The notes: generated by a model not told the origin, from the letters alone. A stretch of DNA of 64,000 nt from Candidatus Margulisiibacteriota bacterium (GCA_018823125.1 JAHJIW010000005.1:67562-131561); one strand, 5' to 3'; positions 1-45,785 are shown, counted from the stretch's first letter. Numbers and translations: made by a program.

Positions 1-758
1 GCGGCAAAAGATTTCGACCGGCTTTGATGCTTTTAGTATGTGAAGCGCTTTCCGGAAAAGTTAAACAAGTATTGGCGGCGGCCTGTGCGGTTGAGCTGAT
101 TCATACTTTTACCCTGATTCACGATGATCTGCCTTGTATGGATGACGATGATTATCGGCGGGGCAAACTTACTTCACATAAAAAGTTTGGCGAGGATATG
201 GCAACTTTAGCGGGGGACGCCATGCAGGCGCTGGCCTATGAGATATTACTGAAAGAAACTAAAGGGGTTTCTCTACAGTATAAGATGCGTGCATTAGAAA
301 CGATATTAGAGGCGATTGGATCGGATGGGGTGGTGACCGGACAGGTGCTCGATATTCAATCCGAGGGAAAGAAAATAAGTTTATCGGCACTGGAAAATAT
401 CCATTTAAAGAAAACGGCGGCGTTGATTCAGGCTGCGGTGAAAGCGGCCGCCATTCTTTGCGGTGCATCTACTAAAAAAATTACCCAGCTGGATCGTTAC
501 GCCCAGCATTTAGGGCTGTCATTTCAAATTGCGGATGATCTCTTGGATTACACTTCTTCATTTGCTAAGATGGGTAAGCAGCCCGGTAGTGATAAGAAGC
601 AAAAAAAATCTACTTACGTATCGTTACTCGGAAAAGAAAAGGCACGCCAACTGATGGTTAAAGAACGCGATCAGACCCGGCGGGCAATTTCTTTTTTAGG
701 TAAAAAAGGTAAGCGGTTAGCGGAATTAGCCGATTTTGTTATAAAAAGAGAAAGATAA
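1..758 (+). CDS. ispA: Polyprenyl (farnesyl/geranylgeranyl) diphosphate synthase, 5' end outside window
   Basis: Frame is open to position 1 (upstream in-frame residues GKRFRPAL). First and second aspartate-rich motifs present (LIHDDLPCMDDDDYRRGK; FQIADDLLD). Confidence 0.9.
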   Translation, partial: GKRFRPALMLLVCEALSGKVKQVLAAACAVELIHTFTLIHDDLPCMDDDDYRRGKLTSHKKFGEDMATLAGDAMQALAYEILLKETKGVSLQYKMRALETILEAIGSDGVVTGQVLDIQSEGKKISLSALENIHLKKTAALIQAAVKAAAILCGASTKKITQLDRYAQHLGLSFQIADDLLDYTSSFAKMGKQPGSDKKQKKSTYVSLLGKEKARQLMVKERDQTRRAISFLGKKGKRLAELADFVIKRER

Positions 759-778
759 ATTTTTGAGAGGAGCGCCAA

Positions 779-1264
779 ATGAAGATGCTGTGGGATATTG
801 TTAATTCACTTTTAGTTAATTACGTGCTGGTGATCGTGGCGTTTGCCTGGTTTGCGGCGCAGGTAATTAAAGTTTTTTATTACTGGATCGTGGACAAAGA
901 ATTTGATATTTTGCACTTTTTTGAGGCGGGAGGGATGCCCTCGGCACATTCGGCAACCGTATCGGCATTAACCATTGCGGTCGGACTAGTTTACGGCTGG
1001 GATTCTCCGCTGTTTGCGATTTCCGTAGTGTTAGCCTTAATTGTGATGTACGACGCTACCGGAGTTAGACGGGAAGCCGGCCGGCAGGCGTTACTGTTAA
1101 ATAAAATGGTTGAAGAAATTTATGCTTCGGATGGGGATAAGATTAAAAAACTAAAGGAATTAATTGGACATACACCCTTGGAAGTTATCGTGGGGGCGAC
1201 GATTGGCGTGGTAATTGCCTTTGTAAGTTATTATATTATTCATAGCGTATTATTCTTCGTATAA
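779..1264 (+). CDS. Divergent PAP2 / DUF212 family membrane protein (YuiD/OapA-like)
   Basis: 161 aa, hydrophobic, GGMPSAHSA motif typical of DUF212. RBS GAGAGGAG upstream of ATG. Sits between ispA and dxs. Confidence 0.75.
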   Translation: MKMLWDIVNSLLVNYVLVIVAFAWFAAQVIKVFYYWIVDKEFDILHFFEAGGMPSAHSATVSALTIAVGLVYGWDSPLFAISVVLALIVMYDATGVRREAGRQALLLNKMVEEIYASDGDKIKKLKELIGHTPLEVIVGATIGVVIAFVSYYIIHSVLFFV

Positions 1265-1279
1265 GAAATAGGATTGAGC

Positions 1280-3169
1280 ATGGGTCGGATTATCGACGAA
1301 ATTAAACTGCCGCAAGGATTAAATTATCTTTCTACCGAACAACTGGAACAGGTTGCCAAAGAGGTTAGAGGAGTTATTATCAAGGCAACTTCTAAGGTAG
1401 GCGGGCATCTTTCTTCAAGTTTAGGAGCAGTAGAACTTTCGATTGCTTTGCATTCGATTTATGACAGTCCCCGCGATAAAATAGTTTGGGACGTGGGACA
1501 TCAGGCCTACGCCCACAAAATTTTAACCGGAAGATTAGAAAGATTTGATACTATCCGCCAGTACGGTGGTTTATCCGGTTTTCCTAATATTACCGAAAGC
1601 CCGCACGATCATTTTACGGTGGGGCATGCCAGCACTTCAATTTCGTCCGCTCTGGGATTAGCGCAGGCCCGGGATTTAAAAGGTGAAAAACATGCAGTCG
1701 TGGCCGTGATCGGTGACGCTTCACTTTCGGGTGGGTTAGCACTCGAAGCCGTTAATAATTTAGTTCATTTAAAAAGCAATCTGATCATTGTACTGAATGA
1801 TAACGAAATGTTTATTTCTAAAGGAGTCGGGGCGCTTTCTAATTATTTAACCAGGGTTAGAACCAATCCCCTTTACTTCAACGTAAAGGAAAGAATTGAA
1901 AAATTAATTTCAAAAATTCCCCGCATCGGAGTACCGCTGGTGCGCAGTGCCGAAAAATTAAAAGATCGCACTAAACATTTCTTTGTTGACTTTAAAGTAG
2001 GGGTTATATTTGAAGAACTTGGTTTTAAATATTTTGGCCCCATCGACGGGCATAATATTCCGCTGCTCATGTCAACTTTGCACCATGCCAAGGAAGTTAA
2101 CGGTCCGGTTTTAATTCATATCTTAACCAAAAAAGGAAAAGGCTATGCCCCGGCCGAGAAAAATCCTACGCTTTTTCATAGTGCTCCGCCGTTCGATTTA
2201 AAAACCGGAAAGCCGATTCCTAAAAACGGCCGGCCTTCATATACCAGTGTTTTTGGTAAAGCCATGGTAAAAATTGCTAAACAAAATGACAAAGTAGCGG
2301 CAATCACGGCGGCGATGGTCGATGGTACCGGATTAGTGGATTTTGCTAAAGAATTTCCAAAGCGCTTTTTTGACGTAGGGATTGCAGAAGGCCATGCGGT
2401 AACTTTTGCGGGAGGTCTTTGTAAGGGCGGATTTAAGCCGGTCGTGGCAATTTACTCTACATTTTTACAGAGATCTTACGATCATATTATTCATGATGTG
2501 GCGCTGCAAAATTTACCGGTAGTTTTTGCCATTGATCGAGCCGGAATTGTGGGTGAGGACGGGGCAACCCATAACGGTTGTTTTGATATAACTTATATGC
2601 GTTCAATCCCCAATATGGTAGTGATGGCGCCTAAAGACGAAAACGAATTACAAAATATGCTTTTTACCGCGGCTAATTATCAGGATGGGCCGATATCGAT
2701 AAGATATCCGCGGGGCAGAGGGTTTGGGGTTGCATTAGATGAAAAACTTAAAAATATTCCTGTCGGTCAGGCGGAAGTAGTATTTAATCCGCCATCTGGT
2801 GCAGCGGACGTATCCATTATTGCCATTGGTTCGATGGTTTATCCCTCAATTGAAGCGGCCAAATCATTAAAAAAAGAAGGAATTGCCGCATCGGTTATTA
2901 ATGCGCGTTACGTTAAGCCGCTGGATGAAGCATTAATCTTAAAAGAAGTTGGCAATAAAAAATTAATCGTGACGGTTGAAGAAGGAACCCTCGAAGGCGG
3001 CTTTGGATCGGCGGTAGCTGAATTATTATTAAATCATAAAATTGTTACTCCGGTGAAACGCTTGGGTATTCCGGATAAATTTGTACAACACGGAGACAGA
3101 AATATAATATTAGAACTTTGTGGATTAACGCCGGAAAAGATTGTTGAAAATGTAAAGAAAGGTCTTTAA
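1280..3169 (+). CDS. dxs: 1-deoxy-D-xylulose-5-phosphate synthase
   Basis: About 630 aa with transketolase-like TPP-binding signatures (GGHLSSSLGAVEL, WDVGHQAYAHKILTGR, GDASLSGG). Start moved to ATG at 1280 (MGRIIDEI); the track start at 1274 is an in-frame TTG. Confidence 0.95.
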   Translation: MGRIIDEIKLPQGLNYLSTEQLEQVAKEVRGVIIKATSKVGGHLSSSLGAVELSIALHSIYDSPRDKIVWDVGHQAYAHKILTGRLERFDTIRQYGGLSGFPNITESPHDHFTVGHASTSISSALGLAQARDLKGEKHAVVAVIGDASLSGGLALEAVNNLVHLKSNLIIVLNDNEMFISKGVGALSNYLTRVRTNPLYFNVKERIEKLISKIPRIGVPLVRSAEKLKDRTKHFFVDFKVGVIFEELGFKYFGPIDGHNIPLLMSTLHHAKEVNGPVLIHILTKKGKGYAPAEKNPTLFHSAPPFDLKTGKPIPKNGRPSYTSVFGKAMVKIAKQNDKVAAITAAMVDGTGLVDFAKEFPKRFFDVGIAEGHAVTFAGGLCKGGFKPVVAIYSTFLQRSYDHIIHDVALQNLPVVFAIDRAGIVGEDGATHNGCFDITYMRSIPNMVVMAPKDENELQNMLFTAANYQDGPISIRYPRGRGFGVALDEKLKNIPVGQAEVVFNPPSGAADVSIIAIGSMVYPSIEAAKSLKKEGIAASVINARYVKPLDEALILKEVGNKKLIVTVEEGTLEGGFGSAVAELLLNHKIVTPVKRLGIPDKFVQHGDRNIILELCGLTPEKIVENVKKGL

Positions 3170-3181
3170 AATTCATAGCAT

Positions 3182-4837
3182 ATGTTAACTGATATTGAAA
3201 TTGCGCAAAGCGCCAAATTAAAACCAATTACTAAAATTGCTAAGGCCGCGGGATTTTCTCAGGATGAACTCGAGCCCCACGGAAAATATAAAGGAAAAAT
3301 TTGTCTTTCTGCTTATCGCCGCCGCATCCATAAAAAAGACGGTAAGTTAATTTTAGTAACTACCATGACCCCCACCCGCAGCGGTGAAGGAAAAACCACT
3401 TTAACTATTGGGCTGGGGCAGGCGCTTAAAAAAATTGGCAAAAAATCTTTTATTGCAGTTCGAGAGCCGTCTTTGGGGCCGGTGATGGGGATGAAGGGTG
3501 GTGCGGCCGGTGGTGGTTATTCGCAAGTGCTTCCCATGGACGAGATTAATCTGCACTTCGTAGGAGATATGCACGAAATCACGGCGGCCCATGATTTGTT
3601 GGCGGCGATAGTTGATAATCATATCTATCAGGGTAATGCTTTAGGGATTGATCCCAAGCGAGTGGTTTGGCACCGCGTCATGGATATGAATGATCGTGCT
3701 TTGCGCAATATTACACTGCATTCTAAAAAGGGTGATCGCAAAGATCGTTTTGATATTACCGCTTCATCCGAAGTTATGGCCATCATGTGTTTATCCGAAA
3801 GCATTGAAGATATGAAGAAAAGATTTGCCCGCATCATTGTTGGCTATACCCATGCGGGAAAAGCAATTACGGCCGGGGATCTGCATGTGCAGGGAGCGAT
3901 GGCGCTTTTGATGAAAAATGCGCTTAAACCAAATTTAGTGCAAACCATCGAAGGGGTTCCAACCTTTGTGCACGGCGGACCTTTTGCTAATATTGCTCAC
4001 GGCTGCAGCAGTTTAATGGCCACTAAATTAGCGCTTAAAGTAGCCGATTATGTGGTAACCGAAGCGGGCTTTGGTTCTGATTTAGGTGCCGAAAAGTTTT
4101 TTGATATTAAATGTAGGGTGGGAAATTTAAATCCTTCCGCGGTAGTTTTAGTGGTTACGGTCCGCGCGCTAAAACTGCAGGGCGGTGCCGGGAAAGAAGA
4201 TCTTATTAATCAGGATGATGCGGCATTGAAAAAAGGTTTTGAAAACCTCAATCAACATTTTCATAATATTCAAGCATTTGGAGTTCCTTGTATTTTAGCC
4301 TTAAATAAAATGCCGTGTGATACGCCTGAAGAAATCGAACTAGTGCTCAATACTTGTCAGGGCTTGGGTTACGATATTGCTTTGGCTGAAGTATGGGAAA
4401 AGGGTGGTGCCGGAGGAAAAGACTTAGCTAAAAAAGTGGTGAATGCTGCCAAACAAAAAAGCACGTTGAAGTTTTTATATAACCCTAAAGATGGTATTGA
4501 AATTAACTTAGGGAAAATTGCTAAAAATATATATGGAGCTTCGGGTGTAGAATACGAATCAGAAGCCATCAAAGATATTAAACATATTGCTGCGCTGGGC
4601 CTGGATAAATTACCAATTTGTGTAGCAAAAACTCAATATTCTCTTTCGCATGATCCAAAACTTTTAGGCCGGCCCAAAAACTATAAGCTGAAAGTAAGAG
4701 AACTCCAGGCCGATGCCGGTGCCGGATTTATAGTAGCTTACACCGGTGATATCCTTACCATGCCGGGTCTTCCTAAATGTCCCGCTGCCGCTAACATGGA
4801 TATTACCGAAGACGGAAAGATTACGGGGTTATTTTAA
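3182..4837 (+). CDS. fhs: Formate--tetrahydrofolate ligase
   Basis: 551 aa; N-terminus MLTDIEIAQ and P-loop-like [11 protein letters not shown] are characteristic of Fhs. Confidence 0.95.
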
Positions 4838-4841
4838 AGTT

Positions 4842-5423
4842 ATGACAGAAAAAAAATCAATCAACCTAAAAAAGATCGAAAAAGCATTCAAAGAAATATT
4901 AGTGGCCATCGGCGAAGATCCAAAGCGTAAAGGCATTCAGGATACGCCGCGCCGCGTAGCCAAAATGTACGCTGAGATTTTTGCGGGACTGCAAAAAGAT
5001 CCCAAAAAGGAATTAACCGTTTTTCACGAAGAAGAACACGAAGAAATGGTGATGGTGAAAAACATTCCTTTTTATTCGATGTGTGAACACCATTTTGTGC
5101 CGTTTATTGGGAAAGCTCACGTGGTGTATATTCCAACCAAGGGCTATGTAACCGGACTATCAAAGCTGGTTAGAGTAATCGAAGGTTTTGCCAAGCGGCC
5201 GCAGCTGCAGGAACGCCTAACTACCCAAATTGCGGATACGTTAATGAAGGGATTGAAGCCGCAGGGTGTTATGGTGGTAATCGAAGCAGAGCATCTTTGC
5301 ATGTCACTTAGAGGGGTTAAAAAACCGGGCTCCATCACGGTTACTTCTGCGGTACGCGGTGTCTTCCGCAAAAATCCTACCACGCGCGCTGAAGCCATGT
5401 CGCTGATTAAGGATTCAAAATAG
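4842..5423 (+). CDS. folE: GTP cyclohydrolase I
   Basis: Conserved CEHHFVPF motif and length. Start set to ATG at 4842 (MTEKK) immediately after the fhs stop; the track ORF extends upstream into fhs. Confidence 0.9.
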
Positions 5424-5430
5424 GTAACTT

Positions 5431-6537
5431 ATGCGAGACGAATTCAAGTATTTATTAGCACTTTCATCCGTTCCGGGTATTGGCAACGCTACGCTCAAAG
5501 CGCTTTTGACTCACTTTGAGCTGGCGGAAGATATTTGTACCGCTACGGAAAAAGAATTACTAAGTGTGCCGGGGATCAATCCCAAAATTGTAGCGGAAAT
5601 TATAAAAGCCCGTGAAACTCATAATTTTGATATTCAGCTTAAAATTGACATGCCTTCGCATACGGAAATTATTGAATACACTAATGAAAAATATCCGCAG
5701 CTATTAAAAACCATTTATGACCCACCGCCGTATTTATTTGCCAGGGGTAATTTAGATTTACTAGATGAGCTATGCTTTGGTGTGGTTGGAACCAGAAAAG
5801 CTACCAGTTACGGCTTAAAAATGGCGCAGCATATTTCAACCGGGCTGGCTCAAGCTGGTTTTACCATTGTTTCCGGAATGGCCGAAGGAGTGGATGCGGA
5901 GGCGCACCGGGCGGCACTAGCCGTGACCGGAAAAACGATTGCGGTGCTTGGTTGCGGCGTAGATATAGTTTATCCATCCATTAACCAATCACTTTATAAA
6001 GAAATTTATAAACACGGTTTAATTATTTCCGAATTTTTACCGGCGAGCGAACCCACTAAATATACTTTCCCTAAAAGAAACCGTATAATTTCAGGATTAT
6101 CAAAAGGGGTTTTGTTTGTTGAAGGCGGGAAAAAGAGCGGGGCCATGATTACCGTTGATTATGCACTGGAGCAGGGGCGAGATGTTTTTGCCATACCGGG
6201 AAGAATTGATACCGATGCGGCGCAAGGTACCAACTGGCTGATTCAACACGGCGCTAAATTAGTACAAAACGCAAATGATATTTCAGAAGAATACGGAATG
6301 GTTTGTGATGCCCACAATGTTTGCAGTGTTAATCGGGTCAAGGCCATTATTAAAAATTATCAGCTTGACCAGGAAAGCGAAAGAATATTAGAAGCCCTGG
6401 CCGAAGGTGAACAAAATATCGAAATTTTATCCCGCCTTTTAGATATGGATATTCGATCGCTGCAGGCAAAATTAACCATGCTGGAGTTAAAGGGAATCGT
6501 GAAGCGGGTTTCGGGCAGGGTGTTTGGCCTGGCGTAA
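5431..6537 (+). CDS. dprA: DNA processing protein DprA (Smf)
   Basis: 368 aa; Rossmann-like core GVVGTRKATSYG ... IVSGMAEGVDAEAHRAAL typical of DprA. Confidence 0.9.
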   Translation: MRDEFKYLLALSSVPGIGNATLKALLTHFELAEDICTATEKELLSVPGINPKIVAEIIKARETHNFDIQLKIDMPSHTEIIEYTNEKYPQLLKTIYDPPPYLFARGNLDLLDELCFGVVGTRKATSYGLKMAQHISTGLAQAGFTIVSGMAEGVDAEAHRAALAVTGKTIAVLGCGVDIVYPSINQSLYKEIYKHGLIISEFLPASEPTKYTFPKRNRIISGLSKGVLFVEGGKKSGAMITVDYALEQGRDVFAIPGRIDTDAAQGTNWLIQHGAKLVQNANDISEEYGMVCDAHNVCSVNRVKAIIKNYQLDQESERILEALAEGEQNIEILSRLLDMDIRSLQAKLTMLELKGIVKRVSGRVFGLA

Positions 6538-7305: not shown

Positions 7306-8574
7306 ATGGTTTTATTTAGTGAAATGTATGCTTCAAAATTAAAAAGAGTTGCCGTAGTTGACCGCATCCAGGAGCCGGTAGGCAAAGTTAAGGATTTAGT
7401 CATTACAATTACCGAACCGTATCCCGTCGTTTCGGGTCTCTTAATTACTACTAACGCAGGTAAAGAATATATTATTTTAATGGCTGAGATCGACATGATT
7501 GGCCAGCAATTTGTTGCTACCCGCACCACCAAGGACCGCATCCCCTTTACTAACCACCGCAATCATGAACTCTATGCTTTTAGAGATATATTTGATAAAC
7601 AGATTGTAGATATTAACGGGGCGCGGGTAATTCGGGTCAACGATTTAAAGTTGGCTAAGGTTGAGCAAAGTGTAAATTTAATTGCAGTCGATGTAGGGGC
7701 GAGGGGACTACTAAGAAGAATTGGCATTGAAGGTTTGGTTGATTGGTTGCTGGGATTGTTTAAAATTACAATTCCGGAACGTTTAATTGGTTGGGACCAC
7801 GTCGAACAATTCCAAACTGGGTCGCATCTTGGCCCAATTACCATTCCGCATAATCGGATCACTGAACTGCATCCGGCGGACGTTGCCAATATTATTAGTC
7901 AGGTGCACTCCGAAGAAAAAACCGCCATCTTTAAATCTTTAAGTGATAAGACCGCCGCTGAAGCGCTGCACGAATTAGAACCTAAAATTCAGGCCATGTT
8001 GCTTTTAACCATTGATACTAAAAAAGCCCTGCGGATTATCGAAAAAATGCCGGTAGACGAAATTGCAGACGTATTAGGCGATCTTCCGCAGGAGAAAGCC
8101 AATGAATTGTTAAGGTTGCTGGGTCCGCGTAAGATGCAAAAAGTAAAAGAATTATTAAGTCACCCCGAAGAAACCGCGGGCGGTTTGATGACCACCGAAT
8201 TTATTAGTGTACCTTTGCATTTTTCGGTTGAAGATACCATTTTAAAACTCAGAGAGGTGGCTCCGGACGCCGAAACTATTTATTACGTTTACGTTTTAGA
8301 TAATGATGAAAAATTGATCGGGGTCTTTTCCCTCCGTGAATTAATTATTGCTCAGCCGCAGGTAAAAATCAGCCAAATTATGACTACCAATTTAAAAACG
8401 GTGGATTCGGATGATAATCAAAAAGAAGTGGCGGATATCATATCAAAATATAATTTGTTTTCAGTGCCGGTAGTTGATAAAAATAATAAAATGTTAGGCA
8501 TTGTTACAGTAGATGACGTCGTAGACTTTATTTTACCTCCCATATCTCGCAGAAAGAGGCATATTTTAGGATGA
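7306..8574 (+). CDS. Soluble PRC-barrel / MgtE N-terminal domain / CBS-pair protein (no transmembrane domain)
   Basis: MgtE_N-like helical segment followed by two CBS-like segments; no hydrophobic C-terminal region. Start set to ATG at 7306 with GGAG six nt upstream (track start is an in-frame TTG at 7294). Stop overlaps the next gene's start (ATGA). Confidence 0.75.
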   Translation: MVLFSEMYASKLKRVAVVDRIQEPVGKVKDLVITITEPYPVVSGLLITTNAGKEYIILMAEIDMIGQQFVATRTTKDRIPFTNHRNHELYAFRDIFDKQIVDINGARVIRVNDLKLAKVEQSVNLIAVDVGARGLLRRIGIEGLVDWLLGLFKITIPERLIGWDHVEQFQTGSHLGPITIPHNRITELHPADVANIISQVHSEEKTAIFKSLSDKTAAEALHELEPKIQAMLLLTIDTKKALRIIEKMPVDEIADVLGDLPQEKANELLRLLGPRKMQKVKELLSHPEETAGGLMTTEFISVPLHFSVEDTILKLREVAPDAETIYYVYVLDNDEKLIGVFSLRELIIAQPQVKISQIMTTNLKTVDSDDNQKEVADIISKYNLFSVPVVDKNNKMLGIVTVDDVVDFILPPISRRKRHILG

Positions 8575-9815
8575 AAGCTCCCCGCGCACCTTTTTACAAA
8601 AGAATGTGGTTTTTCCTTTTAATCCTGGGACCAGGGATGGTTTCGGCTATGGCAGGCAACGATGCGGGAGGTACGGCAACTTATTCGGTGATCGGGGCCA
8701 ATTATGGTTTTAAAATGCTCTGGCTTTTGGTAATTGTTGGAATTGGACTAGCTACCATTCAAGAGATGTGTGCTCGGATGGGCGTGGTTACGGGGAAAGG
8801 CTTGTCAGACTTAATTAGAGAAGAGTTTGGGGTACGCTGGACGCTTTTTGCGATGATTATCCTTTTAGTAGCCAATATTGCCGTAACTATTGCCGAATTT
8901 GCCGGAATTGCCGCCTCCCTGGAAATTTTTGGAATCACTCGATATTTAACCATTCCGATTACGGCCGTGTTTATCTGGTGGTTAATTACCAAAGGAACCT
9001 ATCGGTTTGTAGAACGGTTTTTTATTGCGGTATGCTTTATTTATTTTTCTTATATTATTTCAGGTTTAATGGCCAAGCCGGATTGGGCTTTGGTTTTGCA
9101 AAATACGGTGGTTCCTCATTTTGAGTTTAAAGCAAATTTTATTATGATTGCGATTGCCATGATTGGTACTACCATTACTCCCTGGATGCAGTTTTATCTG
9201 CAGTCATCGATTGTGGAAAGAGGGTATAAAACCAGACAATACGGCATGGAGCGCTGGGACGTAATTTTAGGAGCGGTGGTTGCGGTGGTGATTGCCTATT
9301 TTATTATTGTTGCCTGTGGAGCAACGCTGCATACGGCCGGGATACAAGTTCACAGTGCTAAGGATGCGGCCTTAGCGCTTTCGCCGTTGGTGGGTAGTAG
9401 TGCGGCAATGCTATTTGCGCTGGGTCTTTTTGGCTCATCATTTTTAGGCGCCACTATTTTACCGCTTTCTTCCGCTTACGCCATTTGTGAGGCTTTTGGT
9501 CTGGAAAACGGCATTAGTAAAAAATTATCTGAGGCTCCGGTTTTTTTCTTTTTATTTACCGCTTTAATTCTGATTGGAGCCGGGGTAGTTTTAATTCCCA
9601 GTGTTTCACTGATTAATGTAATGGTTATTTCCCAAACTGCCAACGGAATTCTTTTGCCGTTTATCTTGATTTTTATGCTGCTTTTGGGGAATAACAAAAA
9701 ACTGATGGGGGAGCACAAGAATTCTGCTTTTTATAATATTGTTATCTGGGGAATTGCGCTATTCTTAATTCTGCTTACTATAATCCTGTTATTTTCTTCT
9801 TTGGTTCATTTCTGA
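8571..9815 (+). CDS. NRAMP (SLC11) family divalent cation transporter, NRMT-like
   Basis: 414 aa polytopic membrane protein. The TM1 region LGPGMVSAMAGNDAGG resembles the NRAMP GPGFL...DPGN signature but with DAGG. TM6 region reads GTTITPW where canonical NRAMP has A..MPH. Confidence 0.75.
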   Translation: MKAPRAPFYKRMWFFLLILGPGMVSAMAGNDAGGTATYSVIGANYGFKMLWLLVIVGIGLATIQEMCARMGVVTGKGLSDLIREEFGVRWTLFAMIILLVANIAVTIAEFAGIAASLEIFGITRYLTIPITAVFIWWLITKGTYRFVERFFIAVCFIYFSYIISGLMAKPDWALVLQNTVVPHFEFKANFIMIAIAMIGTTITPWMQFYLQSSIVERGYKTRQYGMERWDVILGAVVAVVIAYFIIVACGATLHTAGIQVHSAKDAALALSPLVGSSAAMLFALGLFGSSFLGATILPLSSAYAICEAFGLENGISKKLSEAPVFFFLFTALILIGAGVVLIPSVSLINVMVISQTANGILLPFILIFMLLLGNNKKLMGEHKNSAFYNIVIWGIALFLILLTIILLFSSLVHF

Positions 9816-45712: not shown

Positions 45713-45785
45713 GCCCCCGTAGCTCAGTGGATAGAGCAGCGGTTTCCTAAACCGTTGGTCGGAGGTTCAACTCCTCTCGGGGGTA
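45713..45785 (+). tRNA. tRNA-Arg (anticodon CCU)
   Basis: 73-nt cloverleaf folded by hand: 7-bp acceptor stem, D-stem GCTC/GAGC, anticodon stem GCGGT/ACCGT with loop TTCCTAA (U33, anticodon CCT, A37), T-loop TTCAACT. CCA not encoded; followed by a T-run. Confidence 0.85.

Follow-up and report, generated by a model that had tools for sequence, protein, structure and literature searches.

An isoprenoid-precursor gene cluster of Candidatus Margulisiibacteriota that probably encodes a PAP2-like DUF212 protein and lacks the OLE RNA

The DNA stretch analyzed here (64,000 nucleotides of Candidatus Margulisiibacteriota bacterium, GCA_018823125.1, JAHJIW010000005.1:67562-131561; hereafter, the window) begins with three co-directional genes (bases 1-3169, plus strand): ispA, a gene of the DUF212 family and dxs. 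The OLE/OapA locus of Bacillota (ispA-ole-oapA-dxs, as in Halalkalibacterium halodurans and Clostridium acetobutylicum) has the same ispA and dxs flanks in the same orientation. An earlier note on this DNA treated the DUF212 gene as the counterpart of oapA and the gap between ispA and DUF212 as the site from which OLE is missing. The analysis presented below makes it probable, in our judgement, that the locus is a conserved isoprenoid-precursor operon without OLE and that its DUF212 product is a PAP2-like protein rather than OapA.

The ispA gene, which codes for a farnesyl/polyprenyl diphosphate synthase, is represented in the window by its 3′ 251 codons (1-758, reading frame from base 3, stop codon TAA at 756-758), with the 5′ part lying beyond the window start. 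The complete gene, coding for 292 amino acids, is found at positions 9102-9980 of L001, a set of identical metagenomic contigs that add 9 kb upstream of the window. The fragment matches Pfam PF00348 with 189.6 bits, and ispA scores 302.2 bits with NF045485, the NCBIfam model of farnesyl diphosphate (FPP) synthase (cut-off 275), which places it in this subfamily; the translation contains two DDxxD motifs, DDLPCMDDDD and DDLLD. The spacer that follows is exactly 20 nt long (759-778) and carries a Shine-Dalgarno sequence, GAGAGGAG, at 765-772. The gene order and the gap of about 20 nt reported earlier were thus reproduced, and structured RNA of any kind cannot fit into this spacer. The DUF212 gene (779-1264) codes for a four-helix membrane protein of 161 amino acids belonging to the “divergent PAP2”, YuiD-like family PF02681. 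It is separated by 9-15 nt (1265-1279, with AGGA at 1270-1273) from dxs (1280-3169, or from TTG at 1274), whose product scores 828.6 bits with TIGR00204, far above the equivalog cut-off of 465.95, and contains the Pfam domains DXP_synthase_N, Transket_pyr and Transketolase_C. The start of dxs is ambiguous: TTG at 1274 (spacer of 9 nt) is the first in-frame start, while the alternative, ATG at 1280 (spacer of 15 nt), is better placed relative to the AGGA and is the start chosen by gene callers in public assemblies. As can be seen, an RNA of about 600 nt fits neither spacer.

Searches for OLE and OapA covered about 73 kb, i.e., the window and the 9 kb upstream of it. The Rfam OLE model (RF01071) gave no match in the 64-kb window, either at the gathering threshold (50 bits) or at E≤10, and nothing in the additional 9 kb; our own nhmmer profile, made from 26 verified OLE RNAs, reached at best 5.6 bits in the window. 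This negative result is meaningful, since the same Rfam model recovered 26 out of 26 true OLE loci with scores of 356-558 bits. No window open reading frame (ORF) of at least 70 amino acids matched an OapA profile, and, there being no OLE at the locus, no gene of the window is encoded immediately 3′ of OLE, the position that identifies OapA. Out of 58 fully visible OLE loci, 56 adjoin ispA and/or dxs; the lack of OLE at this locus therefore argues for its absence from the whole genome. OLE RNAs have been described as restricted to Bacillota (PMC12265935). The DUF212 protein of the window is 100% identical to one from a metagenome-assembled genome (MAG) of Candidatus Margulisbacteria, its nearest relatives come from Margulisiibacteriota, Saganbacteria and WOR-1, and Margulisiibacteriota are grouped with Cyanobacteriota/Melainabacteria, not with Bacillota. 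Neither OLE nor OapA was found in 35 Margulis-like loci (211 kb) or in three close relatives. With no room in the spacers, no OLE or OapA signal in the DNA scanned and a non-Bacillota organism, one of the two options raised in the earlier note, an OLE-free neighbourhood in this lineage, is borne out.

To compare the DUF212 protein with bona fide OapA, OLE loci were collected by means of a conserved 19-mer common to the OLE of C. acetobutylicum (Nature 2025 supplement) and to primers for the OLE of H. halodurans (PMC9723947 supplement). Exact matches to this 19-mer fetched 120 genome loci, 118 of which contain OLE; the remaining two, L038 (Streptomyces) and L122 (candidate division TA06), are chance matches without OLE, a few random matches being expected in 596 Gb. 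All 118 verified matches bear Bacillota names apart from two assemblies that are probably mislabelled or contaminated, L104 (“Pseudomonas sp. ISL-84”) and L083 (“Succinivibrio sp.”); gene order was read for the former and is that of a Bacillus-type IspA-OLE-OapA-Dxs locus. As a control, of the 99 OLE loci in which 900 nt or more can be seen downstream, 96 had a same-strand ORF matching the OapA profile.

The bona fide OapA set consisted of the ORFs located directly 3′ of OLE in 17 Rfam-verified loci. These proteins are 186-238 amino acids long and contain the block ETPFH...RNA...NDVIGD, invariant in 16 out of 16 aligned sequences, which includes D101 and D104; the PM1 mutant carries D101A/D104A (PMC9723947 supplement). 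The block, NDVIGD included, is not present in the window DUF212 protein. Four OapA sequences match CNNM/DUF21 (PF01595) weakly, with 20-23 bits, and OapA has been related to the CNNM domain of MpfA (PMC11332333). No OapA of the set matches PF02681; conversely, the window protein does not match PF01595, matching PF02681 and, weakly, PAP2 instead. In phmmer, none of the 17 OapA sequences scored above 4 bits with the window protein, and profile-profile comparison of DUF212 with OapA (hhalign) returned a probability of 1.3%. NCBIfam holds no model for DUF212 and none for OapA. We conclude that, judged by sequence, the DUF212 protein of the window is not OapA and that the two families are unrelated. 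The apparent OLE-shaped hole in this locus arises because two small membrane proteins that are unrelated were taken for one another.

The window protein is a full-length member of its own family, matching PF02681 with 170.5 bits (cut-off 26.5) over profile positions 3-126 of 126, and shows no structural difference from the DUF212/YuiD family; its subclade is set apart within PF02681 by the conserved linkage to dxs and ispA described below. Its modelled structure has the helical-bundle fold of PAP2 enzymes. Residues K31, P54-S55-x-H57, R97 and H131, each at least 95% conserved among 95 homologues, would correspond to the PAP2 signature of Lys/Arg (motif C1), PSGH (C2) and Arg and His (C3), with non-canonical spacing. 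The two loops bearing these residues contain on average 10.0 lysines and arginines versus 0.4 on the opposite side, a bias seen in 95 out of 95 proteins, from which a cytoplasm-facing active site is predicted under the positive-inside rule. In E. coli, by contrast, PAP2 phosphatases of undecaprenyl diphosphate (C55-PP), PgpB included, act on the periplasmic side, and the enzyme that dephosphorylates de novo C55-PP at the cytoplasmic face is still unidentified (PMC4641660). Compared with PAP2 lipid phosphate phosphatases such as PgpB of E. coli and B. subtilis, LpxE of A. aeolicus and human LPP1, the DUF212 protein is much smaller (about 155 amino acids, four helices), shares 15-22% identity with them and remains below the PF01569 cut-off. 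A sequence search of the PDB with the DUF212 protein retrieved only a chance match to a designed protein, and a literature search for DUF212, YuiD and PF02681 found no functional or experimental study. Taken with the ispA/dxs linkage, the fold most likely points to a putative phosphatase of a prenyl diphosphate or phosphate, or of a related lipid phosphate, though we hold this assignment only tentatively.

DUF212 does occur in OLE loci of other bacteria. A metagenome scan for DUF212 relatives retrieved loci in which DUF212 and dxs are separated by about 600-700 nt free of ORFs and then an ORF of about 200 amino acids; full-length OLE was identified by Rfam in eight out of eight such loci tested. 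Over all loci, the gene orders observed were IspA-OLE-OapA-Dxs (n=50) and IspA-DUF212-OLE-OapA-Dxs (n=20), plus truncated versions of each. In a sample unbiased with respect to DUF212, the 100 genome OLE loci whose upstream sequence is visible for 700 nt or more, DUF212 was located 13-375 nt upstream of OLE on the same strand in 15 cases (L012, L019, L022, L030, L031, L048, L066, L072, L084, L089, L096, L099, L102, L110 and L120), so that the order becomes ispA-DUF212-OLE-oapA-dxs. Among the sources are Caloramator, Alkaliphilus, Thermoclostridium, Marinisporobacter, Petromonas, an Oscillospiraceae MAG and other Clostridia MAGs; four of the records are named only Bacillota (three MAGs) or only metagenome chromosome (one), all class-named ones are Clostridia-type Bacillota, and none out of 15 belongs to Bacilli. 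PF02681 was confirmed for eight of these DUF212 ORFs (161-178 bits). Metagenome loci of the same kind are L160-L162, L164, L165, L174, L179, L181-L183, L189, L193, L196 and L198.

Since ole-oapA is placed 5′ of dxs and 3′ of DUF212 (or ispA), the part of the window that matters is the slot between DUF212 and dxs (1265-1279), not the ispA-DUF212 gap to which the earlier note had pointed, and this slot is empty of ole-oapA. The link drawn in the note is not without foundation: about 15% of OLE loci have DUF212 between ispA and OLE, but as a third gene and not as oapA. The window has a gene family in common with the OLE loci of a subset of Clostridia, but differs from the Bacillota locus in having neither OLE nor OapA, in encoding an unrelated small membrane protein and in its non-Bacillota host. 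In OLE-free Clostridia-type loci (L163, L184, L186-L188), the spacers between DUF212 and dxs are 166-318 nt long, and no OLE remnants were found in them. The OLE literature covered, from which the principal review of gene neighbourhoods (Breaker et al. 2023) was absent, made no mention of DUF212 or PAP2 beside OLE, and no paper connecting OLE with ispA/dxs or with PAP2/acid phosphatase came up in searches for these combinations. Within that coverage, we found no earlier report of the DUF212-ispA/dxs and DUF212-OLE associations, and we consider them a modest side finding. The position of DUF212 immediately 5′ of OLE in these loci raises the possibility, to which we give a low probability, that it is a functional neighbour, so far overlooked, of the membrane-embedded OLE ribonucleoprotein (RNP).

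The gene order of the window is itself conserved. Relatives at 73-81% identity have the cluster yebC-PHP-(His_biosynth-like)-ispA-DUF212-dxs-fhs-folE-dprA, with spacing from abutting or overlapping to 24 nt; the closest ones keep ispA-DUF212-dxs-fhs-folE, more distant ones keep DUF212-dxs, and OLE/OapA is never present. Both sides can be seen in 59 related metagenomic loci, of which 47 show DUF212-dxs or ispA-DUF212 adjacency: 22 have DUF212-dxs without ispA, eight ispA-DUF212-dxs, six ispA-DUF212-[OLE-oapA]-dxs and 11 ispA-DUF212 only, while the remaining 12 have neither. At 55% identity or more, dxs is adjacent in 20 out of 20 loci, often with a 4-10-nt overlap, and in Margulis-like relatives the next genes after dxs are usually fhs and folE. 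The linkage to dxs/ispA spans at least two phyla and, at 45-60% identity, two deep clades of DUF212. In a crude neighbour-joining tree, the window protein falls within an OLE-free Margulis-like clade, and all OLE-linked DUF212 proteins are found in another clade, mixed with those of OLE-free ispA-DUF212-dxs loci; no alignment column was found that separates the two kinds. The earlier note had reasoned that a DUF212 protein clustering with relatives from non-OLE organisms, with no OLE in the genome, would mark a coincidental neighbourhood. The clustering is as envisaged and no OLE was found in the 73 kb, but the neighbourhood is conserved and not due to chance.

The genes after dxs fit the same arrangement, with fhs at 3182-4837, folE at about 4842-5423 and dprA at 5431-6537, all on the plus strand; each is an ORF identified through its Pfam label on L001. 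Since the genes overlap slightly or lie no more than about 25 nt apart, with ribosome-binding sites of their own, co-transcription is most likely. Promoter and terminator scans of window positions 1-5500 yielded nothing above shuffled expectation. The ispA and dxs genes are adjacent in many bacteria; E. coli has an xseB-ispA-dxs cluster and Bacillus an xseA-xseB-ispA-dxs cluster. The window resembles these in having the FPP synthase gene upstream of dxs on the same strand, but differs in the intercalated DUF212, in the lack of xseA/xseB upstream and in the presence of fhs-folE-dprA downstream. Upstream of ispA in several related loci are ORFs of the size of folD, xseA and xseB, which is consistent with xse-ispA-dxs clusters.

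Farther downstream, at about 7306-9815 of the window (L001 16528-19037), lies a region coding for a 422-amino-acid protein with MgtE_N and CBS domains but without the MgtE membrane domain; its gene overlaps the start of an Nramp transporter gene by 4 nt, and the two may form a split regulatory/transport pair. One tRNA gene (45713-45785, 67.8 bits) is the sole Rfam family that reaches its gathering score in the 64 kb.

Several observations weigh against the interpretation of the locus as an OLE-free operon with a PAP2-like protein. The absence of OLE is read from about 73 kb, and its presence elsewhere in the genome is excluded by argument. The structural model of the DUF212 protein is moderate (predicted local distance difference test score, pLDDT, of 73.7), with low values in residues 95-130, and the match to the PAP2 family itself, PF01569, is 16.3 bits against a cut-off of 27.2. 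As 12 of the 59 related loci have no link to ispA or dxs, the linkage is common, not universal. Finally, B. subtilis has a DUF212 protein, YuiD, but cannot do without UppP or BcrC, an argument against the view that DUF212 suffices as a phosphatase for C55-PP recycling. As to OLE and oapA at another locus, the scan reached a small part of the genome, and two of the 58 fully visible OLE loci (L067 and L106) adjoin neither ispA nor dxs; but given the other 56, the Bacillota names of the verified OLE matches (the two apparently mislabelled assemblies aside), the described restriction of OLE to that phylum and the 35 Margulis-like loci and three close relatives without OLE or OapA, we regard this as highly improbable.

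It is just as hard to believe that DUF212 is a functional stand-in for OapA that does the job of the OLE RNP without the RNA. Both are small polytopic membrane proteins whose genes lie between ispA and dxs, but they have no sequence or profile similarity, and their folds and families differ (PAP2 versus CNNM-like). Moreover, 29 loci hold both genes with OLE between them, which fits distinct roles rather than substitution, and no residue column divides OLE-linked from OLE-free DUF212. A generic YuiD-like housekeeping gene, kept in a neutral position by operon inertia, would agree with the 12 unlinked loci and with the lack of an experimentally established DUF212 function in the literature searched. 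We consider it unlikely, though less so than the two preceding possibilities, since the linkage to dxs/ispA has been kept over two deep clades and at least two phyla, the coding regions overlap or nearly abut, as is typical of translational coupling, and a PAP2 fold suits a lipid-phosphate substrate.

We therefore prefer to view the locus as part of a tightly packed co-directional cluster of Candidatus Margulisbacteria, extending from yebC to dprA. In this lineage, as in many others, DUF212 lies between ispA and dxs or directly 5′ of dxs. Its product would be a small membrane enzyme with four helices and the PAP2 fold, a candidate prenyl or lipid phosphate phosphatase for which OLE would not be needed. 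OLE-oapA is then a separate module, found in Bacillota only, that has dxs on one side and on the other either ispA, as in Bacilli and many Clostridia, or DUF212, as in some Clostridia; the window shows the ispA-DUF212-dxs backbone minus this module. More speculatively, and with a low probability in our estimate, DUF212 proteins may be a cytoplasm-facing PAP2 class acting on newly made prenyl diphosphates (e.g., de novo C55-PP or FPP) and possibly neighbours of the OLE RNP, the Margulisbacteria operon being the pre-OLE backbone that received ole-oapA.

The window itself is of little consequence: it contains a normal isoprenoid operon made up of ordinary members of known families, in a phylum not expected to carry OLE. 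What extends beyond it is the finding that the ole-oapA module is found in a single, precise slot, with dxs directly after it and ispA or DUF212 before it, and that among Clostridia-type DUF212 relatives OLE-free and OLE-bearing loci are interleaved, which bears on the origin of the OLE locus. Together, the linkage of DUF212, its PAP2 fold and its predicted inward-facing active site provide a concrete, testable hypothesis of function; if true, a cytoplasm-facing role on prenyl diphosphates would account for the presence of DUF212 genes within the ispA-dxs operons of different phyla.

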